This document shows, piece after piece, positions 606 through 23,646 of a stretch of 64,000 nucleotides of DNA. This DNA comes from an uncultured Gammaproteobacteria bacterium (GTDB lineage: Bacteria > Patescibacteriota > Microgenomatia > CAZETR01 > Amesbacteraceae). Position numbers and translations under genes: made by a program. Below the pieces are notes generated by a model. It saw only the letters and a program-made list of their open reading frames with translations, was not told the DNA's origin and did no database searches. The stretch is from the NCBI GenBank assembly GCA_964518565.1, contig CAZFGX010000001.1:267046-331045 (forward strand), in the 5' to 3' direction. Every line of letters begins with the position of its first letter. Position 1 is the first letter of the stretch.

Positions 606-2451
606 AGCGGTTGTTATTTCAATATTTATTATTCTCTTAATAAGAGGATTAGGGAATGTAAGCGCAAATGATGAATACGTATCTATTGTAAATCCAGTAA
701 GAATAGCTCCATATACTAAAAACGTTGAAAACAACATTAAAGCTCAGTATTCAATTCTTAATCGTCTATCGCTGTCAGGAACCTGGCTTGTGACCTACGA
801 TGTTCTATTATCAAAATCAGCCGTATTAGAGTTAAAAAAAATTTCCAAAAATCAAGAATTGGGAATTTTTTTAGAGATTACACCTAAGCTTGCTGCTGAC
901 GCAAATATAAATTATCACAATTTAGGGTCTTGGCATTTTTCAAATAGCATCTTTTTGTCAGGCTATTCGCAGAAAGACAGACAAGAATATGTCGATCTAA
1001 TTTTTAAAGAATTTAAAAGTAAATTTGGTTATTACCCTAAATCAATTGGCTCATGGTGGACGGATTCGTTTTCCCTTGCATATATTAAACAAAAATATCC
1101 AAGTGTAATCGCAAATCTTGTGTGCTCAGATCAGCAGGATACAGATAATTACACAATAAGAGGTCAATATTGGTCAACCCCGTATTATCCTAGTAAATGG
1201 CATGCAGCAACTCCCGCTCAAACATTAGAAAACAAGTTAGACATTGTAAATATACAATGGGCATCCAGAGATCCTGGACATGGATTTGAAAACAGCCGAT
1301 ATAGTACTCAAGACTATTTTACAATAGACAAACTTTCTCAAAACTATTTTGAATATCTAGTTCAAACTTATACACAAAAAAAACAAAATCCATTTAGTCA
1401 TATAGTAGTTGGATTAGAGTCAGATTTTTCACCCGAGGTATACAGTAATCAATTTAAGAAACAAATGGAATATGTATCAAAAATAAAATCCAAAGACAAT
1501 ATAAAAGTAATTACTATGTCTGAATTTTCAAGTTGGTACAGAAAAAAGTTTCCAGATTTATCACCAAAACATGATATTTCGGCCTTAAACTATTTCGACT
1601 CAAAAGAAATACTTCACTGGGTAAACACAAAATACTATCGAGTTGGATATGTTATAAAAAATAGACAAATAAGTATTAGAAGTCTAATTGCATATTCTGA
1701 GAAAAACAGAGAACCATACTTCAGCTCCATTAATACAAATAAAAATCTCGATATCTATATTCCTTCAATAGTAGATGAAGTAAGAAACAAAGAAGAAAAA
1801 TGGACTCTTCCTATTGGTGCTGTATTATTTACCGGAGAAAGTGAAATTGCGATAGCGAATATTTCTGAAAAAGACATACCGAAAGCAATAAGCAATAATA
1901 ATCAAATAAAAATACAAAAGATTTCTACAGGATTTAAAATAGACTTTACTGGTAAATCAATTTATTCAGGAAACGGAAAAATAATTTCTGGGCTCTCAAG
2001 CGAGTCGAAACACTTCTTAAATCAGAAAAAGGCAATATTATTACTTTTAAATCCATCAAATTGGAAAATGTTAAATACGAAGGAATTTGTTGTATCCCAG
2101 GGTGAGATAGAAGCTCTCGAGTATTTAAAAAATAAGCAAAGAGGAAGAATTTTAGTTGAAAATAATGAATGTCTACAATGCGGTTGGTCAACTGGAATTC
2201 AACCTGCTGTTTTTGCAAACAACCGAGGATATATAAATGAAATCACGCATATGAAAGTAATAAAGGACAAAAAAATATTTGATTCAATAAATAGACAAGA
2301 GGCTAAAAAAGAATTAGAAACATTACAAATTAAATATATTTACTTAATTAAAACTGAAAATTATATTGAATCGCTTCCGTTTTCACCTGGAGATTTAGGT
2401 GTACGAAAAATATTTGAAAATGCAAATGCACAGATTTGGGAAAAAGAGTAA
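583..2451 (+). CDS. Hypothetical membrane-anchored or secreted protein with a large extracytoplasmic domain. Function unknown.
   Basis: 622-aa ORF with an N-terminal hydrophobic segment (VVISIFIILLIRGLG), followed by a long hydrophilic Trp/Tyr-rich domain. Its start overlaps the upstream GT2 gene. I recognise no family motif. Confidence 0.45.
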   Translation: MYIQMRYKAVVISIFIILLIRGLGNVSANDEYVSIVNPVRIAPYTKNVENNIKAQYSILNRLSLSGTWLVTYDVLLSKSAVLELKKISKNQELGIFLEITPKLAADANINYHNLGSWHFSNSIFLSGYSQKDRQEYVDLIFKEFKSKFGYYPKSIGSWWTDSFSLAYIKQKYPSVIANLVCSDQQDTDNYTIRGQYWSTPYYPSKWHAATPAQTLENKLDIVNIQWASRDPGHGFENSRYSTQDYFTIDKLSQNYFEYLVQTYTQKKQNPFSHIVVGLESDFSPEVYSNQFKKQMEYVSKIKSKDNIKVITMSEFSSWYRKKFPDLSPKHDISALNYFDSKEILHWVNTKYYRVGYVIKNRQISIRSLIAYSEKNREPYFSSINTNKNLDIYIPSIVDEVRNKEEKWTLPIGAVLFTGESEIAIANISEKDIPKAISNNNQIKIQKISTGFKIDFTGKSIYSGNGKIISGLSSESKHFLNQKKAILLLLNPSNWKMLNTKEFVVSQGEIEALEYLKNKQRGRILVENNECLQCGWSTGIQPAVFANNRGYINEITHMKVIKDKKIFDSINRQEAKKELETLQIKYIYLIKTENYIESLPFSPGDLGVRKIFENANAQIWEKE

Positions 2452-2461
2452 ACTCTTATTT

Positions 2462-3241
2462 ATGAAAAAAATTGCATTAATTACAGGATATTCATCAGAT
2501 ATTGGTCAAGAAGTTGCTGAGCTTTTATCTCAAAAAATTAAGGTCATTGCAACCAGTAGGAAAAAATTAATATGTAAAGAAAAACATAATATAGAAATAA
2601 TTAAATTAGATATAACGAATGAAATAAGTTGCAATAATTTAAAAAAATTTTTAAAAAAAAATAATTATCAAATTGATATATTAATTAACATAGTTGGTCA
2701 CTCAATTAGTGGTCCTTGTGATTTTTACGACTCAAAAACATTCAACAATCTTTTTAATGTTAATGTGTTAGGTGCATTTAGATTAATGCAGTTAGCTATT
2801 CCTGATATGAAATTAAACAATTCAGGCAGAATAATAAATATTGCCTCAATGAATTCATATTTTTTTAATCCTTATTACTCTATATACTGCGCAACTAAAG
2901 CAGCATTGTTAGCATATAGTTACGCCACAAGTGTAGAATTGCAAAAATTTAACATTCATATAACTACAATTCTCCCTGGTGCGTTGAGTTCGAATAAAAA
3001 TAATAAATCCACCATGACTCACAAATCAGCCCGTGAATCATTTTTTTTACTTAAATGGTTTTTACCACTGACTAATCCAAAAAAAATTGCCGAGAAAATT
3101 TTAGAATCTATTATGTCCAGCAAAATAAATCCAATAATAATTGTTGGTAGAGATGCCAAACTGGTATATTTATTGCAACGAATATTGCCAAACAAGATTT
3201 GGTTTAATATCCAAAAAACAATATGGTCTTCTCAAAAATAA
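2462..3241 (+). CDS. Short-chain dehydrogenase/reductase (SDR) family oxidoreductase.
   Basis: N-terminal Rossmann motif ITGYSSDIGQ and catalytic YxxxK motif (YCATKAAL). I moved the start to the internal ATG at 2462 (MKKIALITG), which sits after a gap from the upstream gene. The ORF track starts at 2399. Confidence 0.75.
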   Translation: MKKIALITGYSSDIGQEVAELLSQKIKVIATSRKKLICKEKHNIEIIKLDITNEISCNNLKKFLKKNNYQIDILINIVGHSISGPCDFYDSKTFNNLFNVNVLGAFRLMQLAIPDMKLNNSGRIINIASMNSYFFNPYYSIYCATKAALLAYSYATSVELQKFNIHITTILPGALSSNKNNKSTMTHKSARESFFLLKWFLPLTNPKKIAEKILESIMSSKINPIIIVGRDAKLVYLLQRILPNKIWFNIQKTIWSSQK

Positions 3242-4251
3242 ATCTTCCTACTATATCAGTTGTTATTCCTACATATGACGGTTCACTTGAAACGCTTGAA
3301 GATTGTCTTAAACGTCTACGACAGCAAGATTATCCTCAATCTAAAATCGAAGTAATCTTCGGCCATGGCGGCAAAAAACAAACAATTGAACCTATTGCAA
3401 AAAAATTTAATGCTAAATTTAAATTAATACCCCCAGCAATCCAAAATGCTGAATATAACCGTGGTGTAGCGTTTAATCAAGCCACTAAAGACTTAGTACT
3501 AATATTAGACCATGATAATCTTATGCCCACAAACAACTATTTAAATGAAATTGTTGAGCCTTTTTTAGAAATAAATGATTTGGTAGCAGTTGAAAGTTGT
3601 TATTTCCACTATAGTAAGCAATACTCTCCACTAGATAGATACTACGCCTTAATAGGCACTCTCGATCCTATACCATACTATTTGGGCAAGGCAGACAGAC
3701 TCTCTCAGAGTTCAAATAAATGGAACTTATTGGGATCTTCAATTGATAAAGGTAGGTATTATTTAGTTACATTTGAAAAAGATCCCAGAAAAATACCTAC
3801 TGTGGGAACAAACGGCTGTTTGATGAACAGAAAGTTAGTTTGCAAAAATGCAAACGTTACTCCAGAATTTCATTTCCCCATTGATGTAATGGTTGATGTA
3901 ATCGCCTCCGGACATAATAAATTTGCTTTTGTAAAAAACTCATTAATTCATCTTACTGGGTCACGAGGAGTTATTGAGTTTCTTCGTCGCAGATGGAAGT
4001 TTGTACAGAAATATCATTTCGAAGATGCTGGTAGACGTAGATATAGTGTTTTTATGCCTGGAGATGAGTTACAGCTCATAAAGTTTTCCATTTATAGTAT
4101 TACTCTGGTAAAACCATTGTTGGATAGCATAAAAGGATATCTATTAATAAAAGATTATGCCTGGTTTATACACCCAATCATGTGCTTAGGAATTTTTGTT
4201 ATTTATACGACTGGAACAACTAAAAACTTCATAAAAAGATGGATATTTTAA
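3223..4251 (+). CDS. GT2 family glycosyltransferase.
   Basis: ISVVIPTYDGS start, acidic DHD motif, and C-terminal hydrophobic segments. Overlaps the upstream stop codon. Confidence 0.8.
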   Translation: MVFSKINLPTISVVIPTYDGSLETLEDCLKRLRQQDYPQSKIEVIFGHGGKKQTIEPIAKKFNAKFKLIPPAIQNAEYNRGVAFNQATKDLVLILDHDNLMPTNNYLNEIVEPFLEINDLVAVESCYFHYSKQYSPLDRYYALIGTLDPIPYYLGKADRLSQSSNKWNLLGSSIDKGRYYLVTFEKDPRKIPTVGTNGCLMNRKLVCKNANVTPEFHFPIDVMVDVIASGHNKFAFVKNSLIHLTGSRGVIEFLRRRWKFVQKYHFEDAGRRRYSVFMPGDELQLIKFSIYSITLVKPLLDSIKGYLLIKDYAWFIHPIMCLGIFVIYTTGTTKNFIKRWIF

Positions 4252-5351
4252 TTCTAAATTGGAAAGATATTCATCATCCGCAAGTTGGGGGAGCTGAAAT
4301 TATTGTTTACGAGCTGGCTAAAAGACTAGTAAAAGATGGTCACAAAGTAACATGGTTTTGTAGAAATTTTGTGAATGGTCTAAATATCGAGACTATTGAG
4401 GGGATAAATATAGTAAGAAAGGGAAATTTGTTAACTACATATTTATTTGCACCTTTGTATTATTGGTCGTTAAAGAAAAAACCAGATCTAGTAATCGATA
4501 TCTCTAACACGGTATATTGGCAATCTCCTTTGTGGGCATGGAAATCGAAAAAAATCGCCTATTTAAACCAATTAGCAAAAAATGTTTTTTTCTATGAATA
4601 TCCAGTAATTATTTCCAGAATTGGAATTTTATTTGAGAAATTACAATATCTAAGTTACAAAAAAACAAAATTTATTTGTTATGCTGAAAGTGTTAAAAAT
4701 GACTTAATTTCGATTGGGATACAAAGTAAAAATATATCTGTATTTACCCTAGGATTAGATCACGCACGTTATGTACCAGGGAGAAAATCTGAATCTCCCA
4801 TGCTTATTTGTGTAAATAGGCTAGTCAAAATGAAAAGGACCGATCTGGTAATAAAAGCTGTGGCATATTTAATAAAAAAGGTACCCAATCTTAAATTATT
4901 TATTGTTGGAACGGGATATGAACGAAAAAATCTTCAAATTCTTACAAATAAATTATTACTTGAAAAAAATATCTTTTTTGTAGATGAACACACGTGGTTT
5001 TTTAATAATAATCCTAAAGATAAAAAAGTAAATTTAATGCAACAGGCATGGGCATTAATATTTCCATCAGTAAAAGAAGGATGGGGGATGACGGTCACAG
5101 AATGTGCTGCTTGTGGAACACCCGCCATAGTGACAAACGTATCAGGTCTTGTTGATTCAGTAAAAAACAATTACTCAGGATTAGTTCTTTCTGAACATCC
5201 CTCACCTCTAGAATTATCAGAATCAATATACCAACTAATATCAAACAAGAAAAAACGTTTAGAATTATCCAAAAACGCAATCTCTTGGTCAAAAAAATTT
5301 TCCTGGGAAAAGAGTTATTCACAATTCAAAAAAAATATTTTTAACATATGA
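4239..5351 (+). CDS. GT4 (GT-B fold) glycosyltransferase.
   Basis: N-terminal GGAE motif (HPQVGGAEI) and C-terminal EX7E motif (EGWGMTVTECAACGTPAIV). Confidence 0.8.
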   Translation: MDILILNWKDIHHPQVGGAEIIVYELAKRLVKDGHKVTWFCRNFVNGLNIETIEGINIVRKGNLLTTYLFAPLYYWSLKKKPDLVIDISNTVYWQSPLWAWKSKKIAYLNQLAKNVFFYEYPVIISRIGILFEKLQYLSYKKTKFICYAESVKNDLISIGIQSKNISVFTLGLDHARYVPGRKSESPMLICVNRLVKMKRTDLVIKAVAYLIKKVPNLKLFIVGTGYERKNLQILTNKLLLEKNIFFVDEHTWFFNNNPKDKKVNLMQQAWALIFPSVKEGWGMTVTECAACGTPAIVTNVSGLVDSVKNNYSGLVLSEHPSPLELSESIYQLISNKKKRLELSKNAISWSKKFSWEKSYSQFKKNIFNI

Positions 5352-6439
5352 GAGTATTAATTTTGTCTTGGAGAGGTCCAAGCCATCCCCTAGCTGGAGG
5401 AGCTGAACAGGCTACATGGACACATGCAAAATCGTGGACAAAGGCTGGGCATGACATAACAATTTTCACATCTTCATTCCCCAAGTCAAAAGAAACAGAA
5501 TTAATTGATGGTATTAAAATTCTGAGGAAGGGGGATCAGTATTTTGGGGTAAAAATTCAAGCATTCTTTTGGTATCTAAAACACAGATCTTATTTTGACT
5601 TGGTAGTTGATGAGTTTCACGGCATACCCTTTTTCACTCCTTTATATGTAAAAGTAAAAATATTGGCATTTATCCATGAAACTGGCACGCAAGTATGGGC
5701 ACTGAATTTTTGGCCATTCCCCTTAAATCTTTTACCTAAAATTTTTGGCCCATTGGTAGAAAATAGTACTTTTAAGTTTTTATATAGAAATATTCCCTTT
5801 ATGACGGTTTCAAAATCAACAAAATTAGATTTAATGAAATTTAATATTAATAACATTTCTGTAGTACCAAATGGAGTTACTGGTCCCAAAAAAATAAAGA
5901 AATTAACCAAATCAAAAATTTTTACAATTATATACTTATCAGCATTAGCCCAGGATAAGGGAACAGAAGATGCAATTAAAGCTTTTGAACTCATTCATGA
6001 TCAGATACCTACTATTCAATTTTGGATTGTAGGCAAATCAGAGCCTAAATATTTAGAATATTTAAAATCGCTTTCAAAATTACCAAAATATTTTGGTTAT
6101 GTAAGCGAACAGGAAAAATTTAATTTGTTAAGTCAATCAAGTATATTAATTTTTCCGTCGTTTCATGAAGGTTGGGGTTTAGTAAATATTGAAGCGAATA
6201 TATTTGGAGTTCCAGTAGTTGGCTATAACGTTTCAGGTACTAAAGACTCAGTTATAAATAACAAAACAGGAATATTATGCCCTAAGGGTGATGTCAATGG
6301 ATTGGCAAATTCATGCATAGAATTATATAAAGACAAAAAAAAGTACAATTTTCTAGCTAAAAATGCAAAAAAATGGGCAAATAAATTCAATTGGGAAAAC
6401 TCCACTAAAAAAAGTTTATTGCTTATTCAATCACTATAA
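5348..6439 (+). CDS. GT4 glycosyltransferase.
   Basis: HPLAGGAEQ N-terminal motif and FHEGWGLVNIEANIFGVPVV EX7E motif. ATGA overlap with the upstream gene. Confidence 0.8.
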   Translation: MRVLILSWRGPSHPLAGGAEQATWTHAKSWTKAGHDITIFTSSFPKSKETELIDGIKILRKGDQYFGVKIQAFFWYLKHRSYFDLVVDEFHGIPFFTPLYVKVKILAFIHETGTQVWALNFWPFPLNLLPKIFGPLVENSTFKFLYRNIPFMTVSKSTKLDLMKFNINNISVVPNGVTGPKKIKKLTKSKIFTIIYLSALAQDKGTEDAIKAFELIHDQIPTIQFWIVGKSEPKYLEYLKSLSKLPKYFGYVSEQEKFNLLSQSSILIFPSFHEGWGLVNIEANIFGVPVVGYNVSGTKDSVINNKTGILCPKGDVNGLANSCIELYKDKKKYNFLAKNAKKWANKFNWENSTKKSLLLIQSL

Positions 6440-7443
6440 TGTCTTCAAATGAAAGGTTGCAGGAAAATCGCTCTGTTCAAATTATAGAAAAAAAAGTTAA
6501 TCATGATGGCACAATAGAAATCTTGATTAGTCACGATCAAGCAACTTATCAACTTGTTTGGGAGAATTCATATACTGGTCAAGTATTAAATCCTGACTTG
6601 GATATAGAAGATTTTATAAAAGGTAATAAAAATCCAGAAATCAATCGGAACAAACGAAAACTCTTATTTGGTGTAAATGCAAATGGTAGATGTTCGTTCG
6701 AATGTATCGGATGTTCGTTTGCCAATACCCGAATGAGAAATGTGTATAAAACCGAAAATCAAGAAAGCATGAGACTAGCTAAGCCGGTTAGTCCAGATCT
6801 TCAGCTGAAACTTATGGAAAAAGCCGAAGAACTCGTATTGCATTCAAACATGGAAAACAAATTAAATCTCTATGGTTGCGGAGCTCTACTGTCTGGAGAT
6901 AGTGCTACACATCCGCAATTGGAAGAATTAATACTCACTGTTGCAACAAGAACCAATTGTATATCGTCCCGATGGTCTTCAATTGCTCCTGCTTCAACAA
7001 AGAATGTCTTGGCTAGATTTGCTACAGCAAGTGAAATAATAAAACAAAAAAATGTACAGCATACTGCTAGTTTTCAAATATCTTTACATAGTACAGATCC
7101 TTCTGAAAGGGCACGACATGTAGGAACTAATAAATTGATTGATATGGATACGATAAATTATCAGGCAAAAAATATTTATAGTATTTCACAACGTAAACTA
7201 ACGATAGCTTTTGTTACACATAGAAATAGTGTAATTGAACCTGAAGTTATTGCTAGTTATTTTAATCCAGTTCATACAATGATCTCGTTAAGACCTATGA
7301 TAAACACGAGCTGGGAAATGGAAAAAGAGCGTTTTCTACATCTTTACAGATCAATTAGGGAAAAAGGATTTGATGTGGTGTATATACCTGCAAGTCAAAG
7401 TGGGGCAGAATTAGACAATCTTCGGATGGTAAATCCCCAATAA
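6439..7443 (+). CDS. Radical SAM domain protein. Substrate unknown.
   Basis: Canonical CX3CX2C motif CSFECIGC preceded by NGR, and a downstream Gly-rich segment (LYGCGALLSGDS) resembling the GGEP SAM-binding motif. About 75 aa of unique N-terminal extension. TAATG junction with the upstream GT4 gene. Confidence 0.6.
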   Translation: MSSNERLQENRSVQIIEKKVNHDGTIEILISHDQATYQLVWENSYTGQVLNPDLDIEDFIKGNKNPEINRNKRKLLFGVNANGRCSFECIGCSFANTRMRNVYKTENQESMRLAKPVSPDLQLKLMEKAEELVLHSNMENKLNLYGCGALLSGDSATHPQLEELILTVATRTNCISSRWSSIAPASTKNVLARFATASEIIKQKNVQHTASFQISLHSTDPSERARHVGTNKLIDMDTINYQAKNIYSISQRKLTIAFVTHRNSVIEPEVIASYFNPVHTMISLRPMINTSWEMEKERFLHLYRSIREKGFDVVYIPASQSGAELDNLRMVNPQ

Positions 7444-8205
7444 GACTTTTGATGCGGTCCAAATAATATTCCAGTTCGCCTTAATGCCTAAAATTTTTGT
7501 CGGAACAGTCCCGGTAATGGGATAGCTTCTAATAGCAGGTATCTCAATAGTTTTATATCCCAGTTGAGTTGTTCTGACTGTAAGATAAAACAATAGTTCA
7601 TATCTAACAAATACATTTCTAAATAATAAAATATCTTGGTCAAAAAAAATTTGTCTAGAAAAAGCTCTAAAACCATTCGAAGTGTCTGTATACCACTTTC
7701 CTGCAGCTAAACTAAGTATGGGAGACAAAATAAATCGAATCCCAATTAAGCGAGCAAAAGGAGTGTTGACGGCTTTTCCTCCTTTGATAAATCTTGAAGC
7801 TTGTATGTAGTCAAATCCATTCGCTAAGTATGTAATAAATTTTGGAATTGTTTGTGGACTATCTTTACCATTTCCATCCATTGTAATAACACCTTGATAA
7901 TCTTGATCCATTGCATATGCAAACGCCATTCGGAGTTGTGTTCCCAACTTACCATTACTTGTCTTCGTCAAAAGTGTTCTTACTCCACATTTGCGCAGAA
8001 AAGATTTTTGAGTTGATCCATCTGAGCTACCACCGTCAGCAATAATAATGTCAACCAGAGACAAATATGGCTTTAAAGAAGCAAGTTGTTTTTTGAATTT
8101 TTCACCCTCATTAATGATCGGAATAATTAAACAGTATTTCCTTTTTTTCTTAAAAAATTCATGAATTGTAAAACTTGGAAGTTCTCTTGTAAGACGCATA
8201 AGCAA
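7411..8205 (-). CDS. GT2 family glycosyltransferase (DPM1/ArnC-like).
   Basis: IIIADGGSSDGS and VITMDGNGKDSP motifs, typical of polyprenyl-phosphate sugar synthases. Its 3' end overlaps the radical SAM gene convergently by about 30 nt. Confidence 0.8.
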   Translation of the reverse strand: MLMRLTRELPSFTIHEFFKKKRKYCLIIPIINEGEKFKKQLASLKPYLSLVDIIIADGGSSDGSTQKSFLRKCGVRTLLTKTSNGKLGTQLRMAFAYAMDQDYQGVITMDGNGKDSPQTIPKFITYLANGFDYIQASRFIKGGKAVNTPFARLIGIRFILSPILSLAAGKWYTDTSNGFRAFSRQIFFDQDILLFRNVFVRYELLFYLTVRTTQLGYKTIEIPAIRSYPITGTVPTKILGIKANWNIIWTASKVLLGIYHPKIV

Positions 8206-8255: not shown

Positions 8256-9302
8256 ATGTTTATGAAAGTTTTAGTAACAGGCGGATGTGGTTTTGCCGGA
8301 ACGCATATTTGCGAACATTATAAAAAAAATGGCGCTACAGTTTATGCATATGATAATTTAACAAAATTTGAATTACGCCGAACCGGATACTCTACAGAAA
8401 AAGCTCGATTTCACAATGTAGATTACTTAAAACAAATTGGAGTAGAAATAATAAAAGAAGATATTTGTGACAAGCAAACGATTGAGCAATATATCCAAAA
8501 ATCAGATTACGTCATCCATACGGCTGCCCAGCCAGCAATGACCATTTCCTGGGAGGACCCAGAATTAGACTTCAATACAAACGTTGTCGGCACATTCAAT
8601 ATTTTAAATGCAGCTAGAAAGTTCAAAAAACCAACAGTGTCATGTGCCACAGTTCACATTTATGGAAATAAAATAAATGAAGAGGTTGAAGAAGGTGAGA
8701 CTCAATATATTCGAAAACCCGCAGCAATAGATGAAAACCATCAGTTAGTTGAAGGTACACTAACACCGCTCCATGCTTCAAAACATACGTTAGATTTATA
8801 CACTAGAGTATTTATTGACACATACAATTTACCAATTGCCTCGTTTAGACTTACGGGTTTATACGGATCCAGACAATTTGGTGGCGAAGATCATGGATGG
8901 GTGGCAAATTTTGCAATTCGATCCGTTATGGATTACCCATTAACTATTTTTGGGACAGGCAAGCAAGTGAGAGATATTTTACATATATCCGATTTGGTCA
9001 ATGCATTCGATTGCTTTTATAAAAACCAAGTTCCAGGTGTTTACAATATTGGAGGAGGCAAAAAAACTATGATCTCATTGATTGAATGTATTCAACTAAT
9101 CGAAAAAATTCTGGGTAAAAAATCAGAAATTAAATATCAACCATCTCGAATGGGGGATTTAATATATTTCGTCTGTAATACAAAAAAAGCTCAAATAAAT
9201 TTAAATTGGTCACCAAAAATTAATCCAGAAAAAGGTGTAACGGAATTGGTTAATTGGGTTAAAAATAATAAAAACCTGTTTGAAATTTTAGATGCAAAGT
9301 AG
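8256..9302 (+). CDS. NAD-dependent sugar-nucleotide epimerase/dehydratase (extended SDR).
   Basis: VLVTGGCGFAGTH glycine-rich NAD-binding motif. About 348 aa, the size of an extended SDR sugar-nucleotide enzyme. Confidence 0.8.
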   Translation: MFMKVLVTGGCGFAGTHICEHYKKNGATVYAYDNLTKFELRRTGYSTEKARFHNVDYLKQIGVEIIKEDICDKQTIEQYIQKSDYVIHTAAQPAMTISWEDPELDFNTNVVGTFNILNAARKFKKPTVSCATVHIYGNKINEEVEEGETQYIRKPAAIDENHQLVEGTLTPLHASKHTLDLYTRVFIDTYNLPIASFRLTGLYGSRQFGGEDHGWVANFAIRSVMDYPLTIFGTGKQVRDILHISDLVNAFDCFYKNQVPGVYNIGGGKKTMISLIECIQLIEKILGKKSEIKYQPSRMGDLIYFVCNTKKAQINLNWSPKINPEKGVTELVNWVKNNKNLFEILDAK

Positions 9303-10071
9303 GATACGTATTGGTGTAATTCCTGCTGCCGGATCTGGAAAGAGATTGGGATATTTGTCTGGCTTGCTACCAAAAACTCTATTCCCGGTCTATGATCGTC
9401 CAATCATCCACTATGTAGTTGATCAATTGCAATCAATGGGGGTAGAAGACATTTATATTATTGTAAATACATATAAAGAAAAAATAATTGAGTATTTCAA
9501 GCTTATTCAAATGGATCTCAGAGTCAATATCTACTTCATAGAACAAAAAACATTAAATGGTACTGGCGAAGCAATATTACTAGCAGAGAAATATATAAAA
9601 AAGGAACCATTTGTTGTTATGTACGGTGATGACTGTACAGTATCAGATTCACTTACCAGTATGGTAGATTCATTTTTTAAAAATAATCCGGTCGTTATGG
9701 AGGGAGTAGTAAAAGAAGAAGATCTCTCAATTCTTCGGCAAACATGTTCAGTAAAGCTTGGGAAAAATTTTAAAATGATCGAAATTGTCGAGAAGCCTGA
9801 GAATCCTCCATATCTAATGCGTGGATGCGGAGTATACATGTTCAGTTCACAAATTTTTACTGAAATTAGAAATACACCGGTGCACCCAATTAGAAAAGAG
9901 CGGGAAATAACATATACAATTAATCAACTTGCAAAATCAGGGCGAGCTTATGGTTTTGTAATAAATGGCAACAATATTAATATCAACAACTACGATGAAC
10001 TTTTAAAAGCAAGTCAACTTCTAAGGGAAAATAAGGCAAAAGCAAAAAAAGTTATCGAGGTATTATTTTAA
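9292..10071 (+). CDS. Sugar-1-phosphate nucleotidyltransferase (RmlA/GlmU N-terminal-like).
   Basis: GVIPAAGSGKRLG signature of NTP-transferase family enzymes. Overlaps the upstream epimerase stop codon. Confidence 0.75.
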   Translation: MQSRIRIGVIPAAGSGKRLGYLSGLLPKTLFPVYDRPIIHYVVDQLQSMGVEDIYIIVNTYKEKIIEYFKLIQMDLRVNIYFIEQKTLNGTGEAILLAEKYIKKEPFVVMYGDDCTVSDSLTSMVDSFFKNNPVVMEGVVKEEDLSILRQTCSVKLGKNFKMIEIVEKPENPPYLMRGCGVYMFSSQIFTEIRNTPVHPIRKEREITYTINQLAKSGRAYGFVINGNNININNYDELLKASQLLRENKAKAKKVIEVLF

Positions 10072-11746
10072 GCGATTCAAGTTTTTGGTTAGTTATATTT
10101 TCGAGATTATTTCCTGAAACACGAAATGCATATATATTTTTTAGAGGTACGATAACCGCCTTACCCCCAAAAAAACGTTTCATGCTCAAGCCATCAGTCG
10201 CTGCACTTACTACTTCATTCCAGTTATTAGTATATGCAATCCTAGAAAAATCAGTAAAGTTATATTGAAAAGACATTACTACTGGAAAACCAAATAAAAA
10301 TACATGATGTAAAATTTTTGGATCACCTTCGAAGTAAAACAAAGTATACTCAGTTGAGTGAAACTCTGGTACATCGGGTATTTGGTGTTGTAAAACAATG
10401 GTAGTTTTAGCCTCTCTATATGCTAAGAGATTATTTAAATAGTCAAAACTAGCTCTAGCGTGAACACTTATAAATATAAAAAACAGTACAAGAGAAAATT
10501 TTGATGAAAATTTGTAGAAATGGTGGAAAAGACTTGCAGAAAAAATCACCATTCCTACAGAACTTACAATAAGGTATCTGCCAGTTGATTCATAAATGAA
10601 ACCTGGGTTACGAAACCAGGGAACGATAAAGCCCAACAAAACGAGCAAATATCCACACACTAAGCCAAACTTCACAGATTGGCATATGTGTTTCGCTGTA
10701 ATGAACAAAATAAATACTATTGAAACCATCATTCCAGTCAAATAACCAAAAATTTCAAATGTTTGCAGTGGGTATTGAGCACCAAAAACAAATGATTTCC
10801 AAATAAATAACTCCCATAGACCAAAACAAATGACAGACAGAAATATCCATTTAATATCAAATCGCAATACTTTCTTTATCACAACAGCAAACAAAACATA
10901 CACAGAAAAGATTGGAACAAATATTCTACGAGGTGAAATTAATGTATCTGGAACAAAAATAGCACCTATTTGTCGAATTGGTGATAACAAAATTTTAAGA
11001 TTCTTTTGTTCGAAAACCTTAATAATTGAACCGTAGTTTTGTGTTACTGCATTAACGCCTCTTCCTCCGACCATTCCGCCAATATTGGTAACAGAGATTA
11101 TTATTAAAAATATCAATATAAAAAGTGGAAACCGAAAGATTTTTTTCCATAAGCTAATAGTAGGTAAATTAATAAAAAGTAAAAATAATTGAAGAAGAAA
11201 AACAAAAACAGGTAAGAAAATAAAGCGAATAGGTTGAATGATAATCGTAAAAATAAAAAGTATTCCAGACAATAAAAAAAATCGCATCTTTTTCTGTATA
11301 AAAAAATATAGAAAAAACATCATTGAAAAAATACCCAGATATGAAGGCATGTTGAATGACCAATCAGTGGTTTCAAGCCCTGTGGTAGATACAGCAAAAA
11401 AAATTGCAGAACAGAAAGATATAAACTGATTTCTGGTAACAGAAAACAAAAAAAATCCTATTGAAGCAGCTGCTAAAAGACGTAAAAAAAGTGAAATTAT
11501 ATAATAATATTTGGGATCAAAACCTACAAAAGAGTGAATCACAAAAGTAAAAATATCTTGAGGACCGTAATCATTAAAAAAATATGCAAAATACGTCGAA
11601 AATGTATGGGGACTATTTTGTATTGAGTTGTTCAACCGCCATAAGCCCAAATAGTCGTCTCCAGTAAGGCCCAAATTCAAACTAGGTTTTAAAACAAAAT
11701 ACGAAAAACAAAAGAACACTAGTACACCAATAAATACTTTACTCAT
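10052..11746 (-). CDS. Polytopic membrane protein, GT-C-like putative glycosyltransferase.
   Basis: 564 aa with more than 10 predicted hydrophobic helices. The first loop carries an acidic LTGDDYLGLW motif, like the DD/DE motif of ArnT/PMT-type GT-C enzymes. C-terminal soluble domain. Confidence 0.45.
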   Translation of the reverse strand: MSKVFIGVLVFFCFSYFVLKPSLNLGLTGDDYLGLWRLNNSIQNSPHTFSTYFAYFFNDYGPQDIFTFVIHSFVGFDPKYYYIISLFLRLLAAASIGFFLFSVTRNQFISFCSAIFFAVSTTGLETTDWSFNMPSYLGIFSMMFFLYFFIQKKMRFFLLSGILFIFTIIIQPIRFIFLPVFVFLLQLFLLFINLPTISLWKKIFRFPLFILIFLIIISVTNIGGMVGGRGVNAVTQNYGSIIKVFEQKNLKILLSPIRQIGAIFVPDTLISPRRIFVPIFSVYVLFAVVIKKVLRFDIKWIFLSVICFGLWELFIWKSFVFGAQYPLQTFEIFGYLTGMMVSIVFILFITAKHICQSVKFGLVCGYLLVLLGFIVPWFRNPGFIYESTGRYLIVSSVGMVIFSASLFHHFYKFSSKFSLVLFFIFISVHARASFDYLNNLLAYREAKTTIVLQHQIPDVPEFHSTEYTLFYFEGDPKILHHVFLFGFPVVMSFQYNFTDFSRIAYTNNWNEVVSAATDGLSMKRFFGGKAVIVPLKNIYAFRVSGNNLENITNQKLESLKIIPR

Positions 11747-11770: not shown

Positions 11771-12601
11771 GTGAATAGTCCGTTAGTCTCTATAATTATA
11801 CCTGCATTTAATGAACAGGAAGTAATTGGTGACCTGCTGCAATCCATAAAAAAACAAACATACTCTAAAATAGAAACGTTGGTAATCGACGATGCGTCAA
11901 CAGACGATACAGTTGAAATATGTAAAAGGAATCAAGTAAAGGTTTTTAAACGCTCTCATCAAGAACGAAGTATTCAACGAAATTTTGGAGCCAAAATGGC
12001 TAGTGGCAAGTATTTATTATTTCTCGACGCAGACATGATCTTAGAACCTAATGTAATAGCAGATTGTGTAAAAACTATGACGAGAGACGCTTCAGTAGGA
12101 ATGATTATCATTCCAGAAATTCCAGTTGCTAGTACATTTTGGGAAAAGGCGAAGGCATTTGAAAGAAACATGTACAACGAATTTGGGGATAATACAACGG
12201 ACGCTGCAAGGTTTTTTTCAAAGACCGCATTTCTTAAATCTGGAGGATATGACACCAACATTACCGGGCCTGAAGATTGGGACTTACCAGAAACAATTTC
12301 AAAATTAGGTTTTTTATCAAAACGAATATCAAATAAAATATATCACCATGAACGGATTAGATCACCATTTCAAGTAGCGAAAAAGAAATATTATTACGCC
12401 TTGTCTTCTCATATTTATTTCAAAAAACATAATATTTCTATTATAGGGCCTAAAACAATATATTTTCTAAGACCTGTATTTTACAAAAATTGGAAGAAAT
12501 TTTTAAAACATCCAGTAGTAGGTATAGGTATGATATTTCTCGTAACATTAGAACAGATATTTGGTCTTGCTGGATATATCTTAGGTAAGTATAAAAAATG
12601 A
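11771..12601 (+). CDS. GT2 family glycosyltransferase.
   Basis: VSIIIPAFNEQ, VIDDASTDDT and LDADM (DXD) motifs. Confidence 0.8.
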   Translation: MNSPLVSIIIPAFNEQEVIGDLLQSIKKQTYSKIETLVIDDASTDDTVEICKRNQVKVFKRSHQERSIQRNFGAKMASGKYLLFLDADMILEPNVIADCVKTMTRDASVGMIIIPEIPVASTFWEKAKAFERNMYNEFGDNTTDAARFFSKTAFLKSGGYDTNITGPEDWDLPETISKLGFLSKRISNKIYHHERIRSPFQVAKKKYYYALSSHIYFKKHNISIIGPKTIYFLRPVFYKNWKKFLKHPVVGIGMIFLVTLEQIFGLAGYILGKYKK

Positions 12602-13713
12602 AAATACTACAAATTAGCGCACATTTTTATCCAAATATTGGCGGAGTGGAGACACATCTAATAGATTTGGTAGATGAATTGCTGTTGCAACAACACAAAT
12701 TAACTGTACTTACATACCGTCCTTTGATGAATGATGTATCTTGGAAATTGTTTGAGTCTCGAAATAACTTAAAAATATTCCGTATACCATGGATACGAGG
12801 CTTATTTAATAAGCTTCTAAAATATCCCATTCTCGAGTTTTTATACTTAGTTACCGGATTATTTTTTGTATTGCCTATATTTTTAATTTCTGAAAAATAC
12901 AATTGTATTCATGCGCACGGTTTAGCAAGTTCATTTGTATCTGTGATATGGGGAAAAATTTTTAATATTCGAGTAATAATATCAACTCATTCTGTCTATC
13001 AATTCCCCAAGTCTGGTTTTTATCGAAAAACCGTTACACAAATATTCAAAAATGCTAATAAAGTTCTATGTTTGTCTGAACAATCAAAAAAAGAGATAAT
13101 CGATCTAGGAGTTAAAAAGGATAGAGTTGAAAAATTTACGTATTGGATCGATTTACAAAAGTTTCACCCTATCAATAAAAGTAAGGCAAAAGATCGATTA
13201 AAATGGACGAATAAATTTATTGTTTTATATGTTGGACGCTTAGTACCTGAAAAAGGTCTGCCAGAACTACTAGAAGCCACAAAAAAAACTTCAGACCAAA
13301 TTACATTTGCAATAATTGGATCTGGGCAAATGTCAAACAAATTATCTCAGCTCTCACAAAAAAACATTAAATTTATAGGTCCAGTTTCACAGGATAATTT
13401 ACCTGTATATTATTCTGCTGCTGACCTATTAATTGTGCCTTCAACTCACGAAGAGGGATTCGGTCGAGTAATTATAGAATCACTTGCCTGTGGCACCCCT
13501 GTAATAGGTGCAAACCGAGGCGCAATACCAGAAGCAATGACTGAAGAAGTTGGCCGAATTATTGATATTACTGCTGAAAATATTTCAAAAACAATTCACT
13601 ACATATATAGGCATCCAAAAGTTTTATCTTCATTAGCAAGTCATACAAGAAAGTTTGCAGAGCGAAACTATAGTAGAAAAAATATTCATGCAATTACGAA
13701 TACATATGACTAA
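12598..13713 (+). CDS. GT4 glycosyltransferase.
   Basis: HFYPNIGGVETH N-terminal motif and EEGFGRVIIESLACGTPVI EX7E motif. ATGA overlap with the upstream gene. Confidence 0.8.
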   Translation: MKILQISAHFYPNIGGVETHLIDLVDELLLQQHKLTVLTYRPLMNDVSWKLFESRNNLKIFRIPWIRGLFNKLLKYPILEFLYLVTGLFFVLPIFLISEKYNCIHAHGLASSFVSVIWGKIFNIRVIISTHSVYQFPKSGFYRKTVTQIFKNANKVLCLSEQSKKEIIDLGVKKDRVEKFTYWIDLQKFHPINKSKAKDRLKWTNKFIVLYVGRLVPEKGLPELLEATKKTSDQITFAIIGSGQMSNKLSQLSQKNIKFIGPVSQDNLPVYYSAADLLIVPSTHEEGFGRVIIESLACGTPVIGANRGAIPEAMTEEVGRIIDITAENISKTIHYIYRHPKVLSSLASHTRKFAERNYSRKNIHAITNTYD

Positions 13714-17900: not shown

Positions 17901-19982
17901 ATGAGTTTAAAAATAAAAAAGTATCAGGGGATTCTTTGCATTATAAGCATAATAATAGTTAGTGTTTGGTTCGGAGAAAAAAAAATACTAGCTACTGCCG
18001 AGGAAGGAATACCGTATTACAACCCGATTCGCACTTTAAATCTTTTCTCCTCAAATTTTTACGATACAGGATTGGGTTATGATGGCGCCTATAATATTTC
18101 ACGGATACCGTTAGCGTGGTTAAACGCCGTACTATCTACAACAAGATTAGATACCTGGAAAATTCAAGCAATCGTGTTCTTTTTTCTTATTTTGACACCT
18201 CTTTTGTGCTTACAAAAATTAGCTATATACATTAATGACAATCCCGATGTTGGATTATTTGCAGCAATATTTTATTTATGCAACCTATTCGTTATGTCTC
18301 AAATATGGAACAGGTTTGTGTCATCGTTAATTTTTCTCTGGTCGTACCTGCCTATTTTTTTATTAATTTGGATTACATTACTAAAAACAAAAAAAATTAA
18401 ATATATATTTATCCTTTCGCTATCTTCCATAGTCTATTCGAACATGTTTATAACAATCTCACCTCTTATAACAATTTGGTTTTGTGGAGGAATATATTTT
18501 CTTTTTAATATTTATCAATCAAAAAAGAAAAAAAAAGATATTATTATAGGGTTTTTGTGTGGAGCAATTTTCTTGATATGTAATCTTTGGTGGATAATTC
18601 CAGTATTTTCATTGCAGAAAAATAGTACAGGGTCAAATTTAAATACAAAATCAAATATTCAAACTGTGAACGATGTAAGTAAATACTTTGATAACACAAA
18701 CATACTTACATTAACTCAAAAATATATGTTTGGTCCAAAAAGTCCATATCAAATTTTTTACTTACGCTCAAGCATAAAGCTTGTTTCGGTAATGGTGATA
18801 GGTATATTAACAATAGGTATATATTGCGCAGCTAGAGAAAAGAAAGCGAGGTGGATTTTATGTATGTTATTTTTTGGCTGGTTTATATCTAAGGGAGTGA
18901 ATCCACCATTAGGAAAAGAATTTTACAATTTTATTTTCGCTAATGTGCCATTCACGCAGGTTTATAGAAATCCCTACGAAAAATTTGGGGTTGTTTTTGT
19001 CTTGGCGTACTCATTGTTGTTTGCAATTGGATTAACGAAACTATTCGACACGACAAGTACGGTTAAAAAATATATTCTTATATTAACAGTGATTATTGTG
19101 AACGGGTATTTAGTAAGTCCAATTTGGCAAGGTACACTGTTTTCTTCAAGTAATTACGTTACTGTTCCAGAGGATTATAAAAAAATAAACGAAATAATTA
19201 ATAACGGTTCAAATGATCAAAATCGCATTTTCATGTTACCATTTTTGCACGGCTCTGAGATCAAATATACATGGGGATATTCGGGGGAGGAGGCTTCAGA
19301 ATTTTTGTTTGATCATTCATCTATATCAAGAATTTTTTCAAACCCTGAAGTAGATGAATTTTACTACCAACTTGGAAAATCAAATCTTTTTAGACAAAAT
19401 AAGAATTTTAACAAAATACTTACGACTGCTTTAGTTGATACAATTATTATCCATAAAGATATTGTCAAATCAACTTATCATCAAGAAAGTTATGAAGATA
19501 CGTTAAAGATTGTAGAAAATTGGAATGGATCTGAAAAAATAGCAGAAAATTCTACATTTAGTGTCTATAGAATTTCAGGTAAAAAAATCGCAACCCGTGC
19601 TTATATTGTAGACAAATTATATTTTGTTAATAATATAGAGGAATATTTTAATGAAGCTACAAAAAATGAATTTGATCCTACGACTGATGCAGGAATAATT
19701 CTATCTCAAAACAAATCAACCCCAATGGGTATAGGACTCTCATATAGTACTCCTGATTATCAGGTTATATCAGTCTCTAAAACAAAATATATGCTAAAAA
19801 TTAATCAGGCTCAAGGACCATTTGTGGTTATTTTGTCCAACAACTACAGTCCATATTGGAAATTATTTGTCAATGAAAACGAAAATTTAAACAAATTAAA
19901 AGTTAATGGTTTCGCAAATGGCTGGATAGTTGAGCAAAAAGGTAGTTATAATATTGATATAATTTATTCACTATGGAATTAA
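17901..19982 (+). CDS. Large polytopic membrane protein, paralog A of a four-member family. Putative GT-C-like glycosyltransferase.
   Basis: 693 aa, with an N-terminal multi-helix membrane domain and a C-terminal soluble domain. Shares KGxNPPLG...YRNPYEKF and C-terminal NYSPYWKL...NGFANGW motifs with ORFs 23622, 25520 and 28541. Confidence 0.5.
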   Translation: MSLKIKKYQGILCIISIIIVSVWFGEKKILATAEEGIPYYNPIRTLNLFSSNFYDTGLGYDGAYNISRIPLAWLNAVLSTTRLDTWKIQAIVFFFLILTPLLCLQKLAIYINDNPDVGLFAAIFYLCNLFVMSQIWNRFVSSLIFLWSYLPIFLLIWITLLKTKKIKYIFILSLSSIVYSNMFITISPLITIWFCGGIYFLFNIYQSKKKKKDIIIGFLCGAIFLICNLWWIIPVFSLQKNSTGSNLNTKSNIQTVNDVSKYFDNTNILTLTQKYMFGPKSPYQIFYLRSSIKLVSVMVIGILTIGIYCAAREKKARWILCMLFFGWFISKGVNPPLGKEFYNFIFANVPFTQVYRNPYEKFGVVFVLAYSLLFAIGLTKLFDTTSTVKKYILILTVIIVNGYLVSPIWQGTLFSSSNYVTVPEDYKKINEIINNGSNDQNRIFMLPFLHGSEIKYTWGYSGEEASEFLFDHSSISRIFSNPEVDEFYYQLGKSNLFRQNKNFNKILTTALVDTIIIHKDIVKSTYHQESYEDTLKIVENWNGSEKIAENSTFSVYRISGKKIATRAYIVDKLYFVNNIEEYFNEATKNEFDPTTDAGIILSQNKSTPMGIGLSYSTPDYQVISVSKTKYMLKINQAQGPFVVILSNNYSPYWKLFVNENENLNKLKVNGFANGWIVEQKGSYNIDIIYSLWN

Positions 19983-22963: not shown

Positions 22964-23646
22964 AAAAATATAATATAAACTATTATAAAAGACATGTAAA
23001 AGGCCATTTAGAAATATTGTATTTAAAAATAATTTTTACATTAAGAAGGAAAGAAATCGAAAAATTTCTTTCTAATAAAACAAAAAAATTGATATTAGAT
23101 ATTGGATGCGGAGACGGAGGATTTTTATCAGTATTTAATAATCATGAATATGAGATTATGGGAATCGATCATTATTTGCCCAAGATAAATCAGAATTTTA
23201 AGACAATTAGAGGAGATTTTGCAAAATATAAATTTAATCAAAAATTTGACATAATAACTGCAAACCATGTAATTGAGCATGTCGATGATTCTAATAAATT
23301 TATTCGAAAAGTCTCAAATATAATAAAACCCGGAGGAATATTTGCAATTTCAACTCCTAATAGAAATAGCTTCGGCTCGCGAATTGGAAAAAAAGATTGG
23401 TATCATGCTGATACTAAATTTCACAAACATATATACACTCAAGCCGAACTTATTTCAGTTTTATGTTCAAACGGTTTTGTAATTCTTGAATCTCATGGTG
23501 AATTTCCAGGGTTTCCATTTGATATTTATCGCACATATCTTAAAAAGGGTATTTTGTGGATTTTTACATTGCCGCTATTTCAGATATTAAAATTTATTAA
23601 TCCAGAGACGTTCGTAATAATATGCAAAAAGCAATACGATTACTAA
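22960..23646 (+). CDS. Class I SAM-dependent methyltransferase.
   Basis: ILDIGCGDGGF motif I. ATGA overlap with the upstream gene. Confidence 0.75.
   Translation: MKKYNINYYKRHVKGHLEILYLKIIFTLRRKEIEKFLSNKTKKLILDIGCGDGGFLSVFNNHEYEIMGIDHYLPKINQNFKTIRGDFAKYKFNQKFDIITANHVIEHVDDSNKFIRKVSNIIKPGGIFAISTPNRNSFGSRIGKKDWYHADTKFHKHIYTQAELISVLCSNGFVILESHGEFPGFPFDIYRTYLKKGILWIFTLPLFQILKFINPETFVIICKKQYDY

Follow-up and report, generated by a model that had tools for sequence, protein, structure and literature searches.

The described enzymes closest to the protein analysed here are RlmN and Cfr, the class A radical S-adenosylmethionine (SAM) enzymes, which to our knowledge are known solely as RNA methylases and whose chemistry depends on two cysteines. 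The resolving cysteine (RlmN C118) is reportedly required by RlmN and Cfr, as Grove et al. and Boal et al. are said to have found in 2011. The methyl-carrying cysteine (RlmN C355, Cfr C338) is likewise stated to be essential (bioRxiv 10.1101/2025.09.18.677109). DesII acts as a deaminase/dehydrogenase on thymidine diphosphate (TDP)-sugars (PMC11434129), and AprD4 is a diol dehydratase paired with AprD3, an NAD(P)H reductase (PMC5461906). Here we show that a 64-kb stretch of contig CAZFGX010000001.1 (the whole of which is called the window below) encodes a 334-residue protein, designated X, which lies in a glycan biosynthesis locus that is conserved around its homologs and which, on the evidence of its sequence and of structural models, very probably belongs to the radical SAM enzymes, in the clan of RlmN and Cfr. 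An RlmN relative that has the cluster and the SAM site and neither cysteine must use the 5'-deoxyadenosyl radical otherwise. We tentatively propose that the RlmN/Cfr scaffold has been recruited from RNA methylation to glycan synthesis in bacteria of the candidate phyla radiation (CPR), where it would bring about a non-methylating radical change of a nucleotide- or lipid-linked hexose.

The open reading frame (ORF) of X begins with ATG and ends with TAA. Its start codon is correct, since M1 is invariant and the N-terminal region can be aligned in all family members (23-sequence alignment). The stop codon of the upstream gene, a glycosyltransferase of family 4 (GT4), occupies 6437-6439 and shares one base with the ATG of X (6439-6441). 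The 3' end of X overlaps by 33 bp a convergent glycosyltransferase gene of family 2 (GT2; 7411-8205, - strand). The features of X are as follows.

6439-7443, + strand: X, a 334-residue radical SAM enzyme of an RlmN/Cfr-related family without annotation, as assigned from fold, profile and motif evidence
6437-6441, + strand: TAATG, in which the stop of the upstream GT4 gene overlaps the start of X, evident in the sequence itself
6439-6663, + strand: N-terminal region, residues 1-75, with strands at 14-20, 26-32 and 35-45, a short helix and a conserved N51-P52 loop
6691-6714, + strand: predicted [4Fe-4S] cluster triad C85-x3-C89-x2-C92, invariant in 23/23 sequences and aligned with RlmN C125/C129/C132
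6892-6900, + strand: S152-G153-D154, predicted SAM-binding motif of the GGE type, aligned with RlmN G179-E180
7075-7119, + strand: 'SLH' strand, Q213-x-S215-L216-H217-S218-T219-D220...R224..H227, in common with RlmN ISLHAPNDEIR
7408-7419, + strand: C-terminal tail E324-L-D-N327, in the place of the RlmN C355 loop and free of cysteine

An earlier sequence-only reading of this DNA had named X a radical SAM enzyme on the strength of the string CSFECIGC, taken as a CX3CX2C motif preceded by NGR, and of a putative glycine-rich SAM motif behind it, and had described the TAATG junction with the GT4 gene. The cysteine motif and the junction are borne out by the letters themselves. CSFECIGC corresponds to C85-x3-C89-x2-C92 with N82-G83-R84 directly before it, and a search of all six frames of the window (74 stop-to-stop segments of at least 100 residues, 23,423 residues in total) shows no other CX3CX2C. 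The same reading held that the assignment would fall if the three cysteines were not conserved in homologs; they are invariant in all 23, at identities down to 18%, which is far beyond chance. The glycine-rich motif proved to be L150-L151-S152-G153-D154, in which G153 is invariant and position 154 is D or E in 22/23 sequences. At the place of SGD, remote members read GGD, GGE or SGE, and the position aligns with M-G-E-P of RlmN.

The invariant positions of the 23-sequence alignment are C85, C89, C92, G153, S180, Q213, S215, R224 and R285; the RlmN residues opposite S215 and R224 are S233 and R242, both of them invariant in a set of RlmN-like proteins (alignment A3, described below). At least 14 of the 15 core sequences also keep each of N51-P52, L76, F94, P116, L150, D154, R178, H217, S218, H227, F258-V259, Y303, E324 and N327, the last pair, in the C-terminal tail, being invariant in the core. 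F94 stands two residues past the third cysteine, and remote branches retain an aromatic residue before that cysteine, as CxFC.

AlphaFold2 (AF2) modelling gave a predicted local distance difference test score (pLDDT) of 80 from 5 sequences, and of 91, with a predicted template modelling score (pTM) of 0.90, from 23 sequences. The model alternates strands and helices over residues 68-315, as in the partial (beta/alpha)6 triosephosphate isomerase (TIM)-barrel core of radical SAM enzymes. Foldseek comparison of the model with the PDB placed E. coli RlmN at the top (4e-12, template modelling score (TM) 0.60-0.65, 331-353 columns), with Sphaerobacter RlmN (6fz6; 4.6e-11, root-mean-square deviation 3.7) and Cfr (6.7e-8) after it. 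DesII came next at 7.5e-4, a gap of four logs after Cfr, and OxsB, lysine 2,3-aminomutase, BioB, LipA and viperin lay at about 1e-3 to 4e-3. All Foldseek matches at E<=1e-3 were radical SAM enzymes, and the first model (pLDDT 80) gave the same picture as the second. The structure prediction that the sequence-only reading had called for thus returned a radical SAM fold, and X grouped with the RlmN/Cfr clan and not with an unrelated family, the other outcome by which the assignment would have fallen.

Profile comparison points the same way. For the alignment of the X family against E. coli RlmN (query sequence identical to 3rf9_A over residues 1-384), hhalign gave a probability of 91.7% and E 7.6e-7 across X 72-319 and RlmN 114-347, with the cysteine triad, G-D/G-E and SLH...R in register. 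Against alignment A3, which consists of RlmN and 17 short RlmN-like proteins found as weaker matches of the family profile, it gave 99.9% and E 9.3e-37. With the RlmN/Cfr models of NCBIfam these short proteins score 1e-9 to 1e-17, which falls far short of the equivalog cut-offs. Invariant in both the X family and A3 are the triad, G153/G179, S215/S233 and R224/R242. It is because fold matches, profile homology and coinciding invariant positions agree that we place X in the RlmN/Cfr clan, and together with the invariant triad and the GGE-type motif they uphold the radical SAM identity proposed from the sequence. The short proteins are of interest in their own right: they belong to a large set (P0033-P0075) of uncharacterised RlmN-like proteins of about 300-330 residues that are without the N-terminal helical lobe and have the motif SLHSTDE..R in common with the X family. 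Some of them carry a C-terminal (S/A)xCGQ like that around RlmN C355, without a cysteine at the C118 position; others are without both.

Taken over the available structures (PDB 3RFA, 5HR6, 6FZ6, 9P0P), RlmN and Cfr are the best fold match of X (4e-12 to 7e-8, TM 0.52-0.65, 320-353 columns), and CX3CX2C, G-E/D, an S-T strand, SLH...R and an (N/S)L(I/R)P strand stand in register with X. X also has a beta-strand lead-in before the core, which probably corresponds to RlmN residues 81-113. This correspondence concerns the first 75 residues of X, which the sequence-only reading had called a unique extension. They are nothing of the kind, being present in all 23 homologs, with N51-P52 and G62 conserved, and are modelled by AF2 as three beta-strands and a short helix at pLDDT 87-97. 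The pairing of X 14-41 with RlmN 81-108 was given by hhalign only at P=0.076, and Foldseek aligned X with RlmN over 331-353 columns, 60-90 more than the 255-270 or so reached with radical SAM enzymes matched over the core only. From the model, the N-terminal strands of X are therefore probably the RlmN lead-in. RlmN residues 1-75 have no counterpart in A3, and in X no helical N-terminal lobe as in RlmN/Cfr is predicted, the protein opening with strands at residue 14.

Unlike RlmN and Cfr, then, X is without the helical N-terminal lobe; it is also without equivalents of the methyl-carrying C355/C338 and of the resolving C118/C105, the comparison shows a 20-residue insertion with a conserved NP(D) loop, and its genomic context is glycan synthesis whereas theirs is translation. 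No member of the family has a cysteine at the RlmN C118 position, seven residues ahead of the cluster motif, which corresponds to L76 in the hhalign alignment and to G78 without gaps, and none of the 23 sequences has one in the C-terminal tail; the hhalign alignment to RlmN itself ends at X319/RlmN347. Across the family alignment no conserved cysteine beyond the triad was found, and four members (P0004, P0007, P0010, P0014) contain exactly three cysteines in total. The properties that define class A are thus divided: X has the homologous fold and sequence and is without both catalytic cysteines, the helical lobe and a match to TIGR00048 or TIGR04432. Since equivalents of C118 and C355 are absent and four members have three cysteines only, the class A ping-pong mechanism is excluded. 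Judged from its sequence, X is not a class A METHYLTRANSFERASE, and we hold with high confidence that it is a radical SAM enzyme other than a class A methylase.

The same absences narrow the chemistry further. Auxiliary Fe-S clusters, as in SPASM/twitch dehydrogenases (e.g. BtrN-type enzymes, anSME) and methylthiotransferases, are ruled out by the lack of cysteines beyond the triad. A cysteine hydrogen-atom donor, as used by several radical epimerases, is ruled out by the three-cysteine members. A class B (cobalamin-dependent) methyltransferase would need an N-terminal cobalamin-binding domain: X has no B12-binding Pfam match, and its N-terminus is a three-strand beta unit of about 45 residues, with no cobalamin domain. 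A glycyl-radical activase or protein maturase was rejected for want of a partner gene and of SPASM cysteines. RlmN-type methylation is not possible, because methyl-carrying and resolving cysteines, a second cluster and a cobalamin domain are all missing. Among the sugar reactions suggested by the sequence-only reading, C-methylation is consequently disfavoured for any known class of radical SAM methylase, there being three-cysteine members and no cobalamin or extra domain, and epimerisation through a cysteine hydrogen donor fares no better, given members with three cysteines only.

Searches of curated models do not recognise the family. A Pfam scan of X gave no meaningful match even at E<=10, with no match to the radical SAM model PF04055 at that level; an NCBIfam scan gave zero matches at E<=10, TIGR00048 and TIGR04432 included; and Pfam scans of the four closest homologs of X gave no relevant match. 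What these scans did return was noise, such as Peptidase_M55 and DUF2387. Remote relatives reach 19-28 bits with PF04055 against a cut-off of 29.5, and one, P0085, has a precomputed PF04055 match. The hidden Markov model (HMM) check of radical SAM identity recommended by the sequence-only reading therefore came back empty from Pfam and NCBIfam, and X is assigned by profile and fold comparison. The missed PF04055 gathering score is an operational criterion, by which the triad, the GGE motif and the barrel core are not overturned. PDB sequence searches with X and with the 5-sequence and 23-sequence profiles returned noise or matches confined to the cluster motif (YydG, HydG, BioB; E 0.03-1), and when the window was searched by tblastn with E. 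coli RlmN there was no match, X itself being missed. Among 5.8 billion proteins searched through a word index, X had only four homologs, 32-50% identical and all without a name. In an exhaustive comparison of the family profile with 1.84 billion cluster representatives, 73 proteins scored E<=1e-3, and 16 of these reached E<=1e-30. The label 'YodC/DUF2158' carried by one remote family cluster is clearly wrong. No description of the family was found in the literature (searched as RlmN-like; as radical SAM with nucleotide-sugar clusters; and as CPR with radical SAM and S-layer). The X family is rare and nameless, and appears to be mainly confined to uncultured ultra-small bacteria. Being invisible to Pfam and NCBIfam, its members are currently annotated as hypothetical.

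The genes that surround X in the window, where short-chain dehydrogenases/reductases (SDR) accompany the glycosyltransferases, are listed here.

6-605, + strand: GT2, partial
583-2451, + strand: 622-residue protein, weakly DUF3863-like (E 3e-4, below cut-off)
2399-3241, + strand: classical SDR
3223-4251, + strand: GT2
4239-5351, + strand: GT4 (Pfam Glycos_transf_1 and Glyco_transf_4)
5348-6439, + strand: GT4 (Pfam Glycos_transf_1 and Glyco_transf_4)
7411-8205, - strand: convergent GT2, polyprenyl-phosphate hexosyltransferase-like, of AglJ/PpgS/DPM1 type (Pfam Glycos_transf_2)
8256-9302, + strand: extended SDR, nearest to cytidine diphosphate (CDP)-tyvelose 2-epimerase (PDB 9rl0_E 3e-52, 1orr 2e-44)
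9292-10071, + strand: sugar-1-phosphate nucleotidyltransferase (Pfam NTP_transferase 9e-27)
10052-11746, - strand: 564-residue polytopic membrane protein (hydrophobic sequence)
11771-12601, + strand: GT2
12598-13713, + strand: GT4
17901-19982, + strand: 693-residue membrane protein with a Pfam match to GT-C_AftD, arabinofuranosyltransferase-like (E 2.7e-7; score 29.4 bits, cut-off 26)

Downstream of 13713 follow further epimerases, glycosyltransferases, methyltransferases and the GT-C_AftD-like protein. The structure 9RL0 is that of TaTyvE, which converts CDP-glucose to CDP-mannose (PMC13098431). The NCBIfam matches of the convergent GT2 (AglJ 2e-12, PpgS 7e-8) are both below the curated cut-offs, and those of the nucleotidyltransferase are sub-threshold and non-specific. 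The 564-residue membrane protein had no sequence match in Pfam, NCBIfam or the PDB; its homologs occur in loci L001, L007, L008, L011, L012 and L018, and its hydrophobicity and a GDDY loop after the first helix suggest that it is possibly an extracytoplasmic GT-C-like transferase.

Loci of X homologs were gathered by tblastn with the window proteins and from precomputed gene calls; a search with the 5-sequence alignment gave 2 GTDB and 4 metagenome loci, two of these duplicates. Eleven distinct loci, in which X is 27-50% identical, were distinguished (window/L006, L001, L002, L003-5, L007/17, L008/15, L011, L012, L014, L016 and L018), and the same glycan genes surround X in 11/11. Homologs of the GT4 genes lie upstream of X in 10 loci. 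In all 8 loci in which the contig continues, the 3' end of X is met or overlapped by a homolog of the convergent GT2; in L018 a convergent 257-residue gene without a Pfam match stands at this place, and an extra GtrA-like gene is present. The TyvE-like SDR followed by the nucleotidyltransferase was found in seven loci, wherever the contig allows. The L007 locus belongs to a Candidatus Amesbacteria genome (Microgenomates, CPR) and L008 (CAYHNU010000001.1) is collinear with it; both match the TyvE-like SDR and nucleotidyltransferase of the window at 76-81% identity. The stop/start overlap of GT4 and X is not kept in the other loci, where 39-151 bp separate the two genes or a gene for an FkbM methyltransferase stands between them; genes for FkbM-type or other methyltransferases occur in some versions of the locus, and a classical SDR lies five genes upstream of X in several. 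X is full-length in every locus. The description of X as embedded in a glycosyltransferase and nucleotide-sugar locus was thus well founded, X being a fixed component in all 11 loci of its subfamily. The related question, whether homologs always neighbour nucleotide-sugar enzymes, is answered positively for these 11 loci and negatively for two remote branches, P0083 and P0022, which are considered below.

Because its family is placed in the same glycan gene cluster throughout, X probably alters a sugar, and it likely works in a glycan pathway. We favour, with slightly more reserve, the reading that X is a single-cluster radical SAM enzyme from the RlmN/Cfr lineage that carries out a methyl-independent radical modification of a sugar. 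On this reading X would descend from the RlmN/Cfr lineage by loss of the helical N-terminal RNA-binding domain and of both mechanistic cysteines. C85, C89 and C92 would hold one [4Fe-4S] cluster, SAM would be bound via the SGD and SLH strands, and reductive cleavage of SAM would yield a 5'-deoxyadenosyl radical that abstracts a hydrogen atom from the substrate. The outcome would be a methyl-independent change at a sugar C-H position, elimination/dehydration or oxidation, as with DesII, viperin and AprD4. The substrate would most likely be a hexose activated by the adjoining nucleotidyltransferase and processed by the TyvE-like 2-epimerase, on which X would act either ahead of its transfer to polyprenyl phosphate by the convergent GT2 or afterwards; the membrane transferase would then add the hexose to a cell-surface glycan, by a logic like that of the Gtr and Arn systems. 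A non-standard sugar in the product, as the sequence-only reading supposed, can reasonably be inferred.

With a single cluster and no hydrogen-atom-donating cysteine, lyases and oxidases are the closest precedents for X; such chemistry on a sugar, argued by analogy, is possible and still rather doubtful. DesII, a TDP-4-amino-4,6-dideoxy-D-glucose deaminase/dehydrogenase, resembles X in its single cluster, in its setting in a sugar-biosynthesis gene cluster and as the best non-RlmN fold match. The analogy is functional: the fold similarity is that of radical SAM enzymes in general (TM 0.31), DesII has about 480 residues with other accessory elements, and no sequence similarity between X and DesII was detected in the PDB sequence searches. 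AprD4/AprD3 and viperin catalyse methyl-independent radical dehydration of sugar or ribose diols, and an SDR lies upstream in several X loci, but the fold match to viperin (4e-3) is generic and AprD4 is likened to X by function. Pairing with a classical SDR in the manner of AprD4/AprD3 was rejected as a constant feature, the SDR being missing upstream of X in L007 and L008. The locus as a whole recalls GtrA/GtrB/GtrC and ArnC/ArnT in its nucleotidyltransferase, sugar-modifying enzymes, polyprenyl-phosphate GT2 and polytopic membrane protein, and in the GtrA-like gene of L018; those systems differ in having no radical SAM enzyme, and the GT2 and membrane protein of the X locus are below curated family thresholds.

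If the proposed recruitment is true, X would be the first case of a class A fold that neither serves RNA nor methylates, and these organisms would have an undescribed envelope sugar. The surface glycans of such ultra-small bacteria are essentially uncharacterised. Identification of the reaction of X would add an activity to a well-studied fold and flag an unusual sugar in CPR envelopes. Because the glycan setting of X is so constant, the new activity can be put to the test.

Several observations weigh against a sugar-modifying radical enzyme. The closest characterised relatives of X act on RNA, and no curated HMM recognises it. Radical SAM enzymes usually have an aromatic residue before the third cysteine, where the core subfamily has Gly (or Glu, Asp or Asn). 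In L007 and L008 the 8 kb upstream of X are without the classical SDR, a possible reductase partner. X is moreover by far the fastest-evolving gene of the locus, with 32-40% identity against 53-81% for its neighbours (L001, L007, L008, L011, L012), among which the TyvE-like SDR has 71-81%, the nucleotidyltransferase 65-76% and the convergent GT2 53-63%; such divergence may reflect relaxed constraint, a substrate that diversifies, or a role for X that is looser or accessory. Two remote branches, finally, lie outside glycan loci, so that the family is not uniformly glycan-linked. P0083 (381 residues, 26% identity, weak PF04055 match; L013 7333-9146, GCA_964483665.1, CAZACP010000008.1) is in stop/start overlap with an RsmE-like Methyltrans_RNA (PF04452) gene, the two lying just downstream of dnaA-dnaN-recF, and this branch may still act on RNA. 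P0022 (20% identity; L009 8001-9017, GCA_053532155.1, JAIYPN010000025.1) is on an archaeal-looking contig that carries RNA_pol_L, RNA_pol_N, L18e, L13 and S9; its neighbours are Fic, PIN/RHH and Mrr/SNF2 genes, and glycan genes are absent from its surroundings.

These points bear differently on the readings that compete with sugar modification. That X itself modifies tRNA or rRNA as RlmN and Cfr do, its glycan location being uninformative, would suit the finding that its best structural and profile matches are RNA methyltransferases and that P0083 is stop-start coupled to the RsmE-like gene. We consider it improbable, given that both class A catalytic cysteines are absent, some members having three cysteines only, that the helical N-terminal lobe of RlmN/Cfr is missing, that the isoelectric points of the family run from 5.5 to 9 and are not uniformly basic, and that the glycan neighbourhood is kept in 11/11 loci despite divergence of X to 27-40% identity. 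Its descent from class A methylases, and the plausibility of methylated sugars where FkbM-type or other methyltransferase genes are present, could instead speak for a methyltransferase working by an undescribed route, with a non-cysteine methyl carrier or by direct transfer from a second SAM. The loss of the C118 and C355 equivalents, the fact that an RlmN-like fold accounts for all 334 residues and leaves no cobalamin-binding, HemN-like or extra domain, and the conventional methyltransferases already encoded nearby make this very hard to credit. Just as little is to be said for a degenerate, non-catalytic remnant with a structural or regulatory role. Fast evolution, the missing aromatic of CX3CXphiC and the escape from all curated HMMs would fit it, but the triad, the GGE glycine, S180, Q213, S215, R224 and R285 do not vary among 23 sequences whose identities run from 18 to 50%, AF2 models the protein with confidence and the gene is nowhere truncated.

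A variant of the sugar-modifying reading would have X act after the convergent GT2, on a lipid-linked sugar, a polyprenyl carrier or a glycoprotein, much as DprE1/E2 act on decaprenyl-phosphoryl-ribose. The most constant neighbour of X is indeed the convergent polyprenyl-phosphate-type GT2 at its 3' end (8/8 loci), and the conserved polytopic membrane protein and the GtrA-like gene of L018 fit as well. Yet the model of X is a fully soluble alpha/beta protein with no predicted membrane segment or amphipathic anchor, the GT2 assignment is under curated thresholds, and we know of no characterised radical SAM enzyme that acts on polyprenyl-phosphate sugars; we regard this variant as unlikely.

Other parts of the island deserve mention. 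The 622-residue protein at 583-2451 has an N-terminal hydrophobic segment, and homologs with 40-45% identity also open the locus in L001, L007, L008 and L011. The 693-residue membrane protein at 17901-19982 is a second candidate extracytoplasmic glycosyltransferase of the island. Two large adjoining ORFs at 23622-28402 (+ strand), of 638 and 960 residues, have no Pfam match at E<=1e-3. No tRNA genes were found in the window by ARAGORN. The G+C content of the window is 33%, and over its full length (1-64000) almost every long ORF is on the + strand, and the stop codon of one gene often overlaps the start codon of the next.

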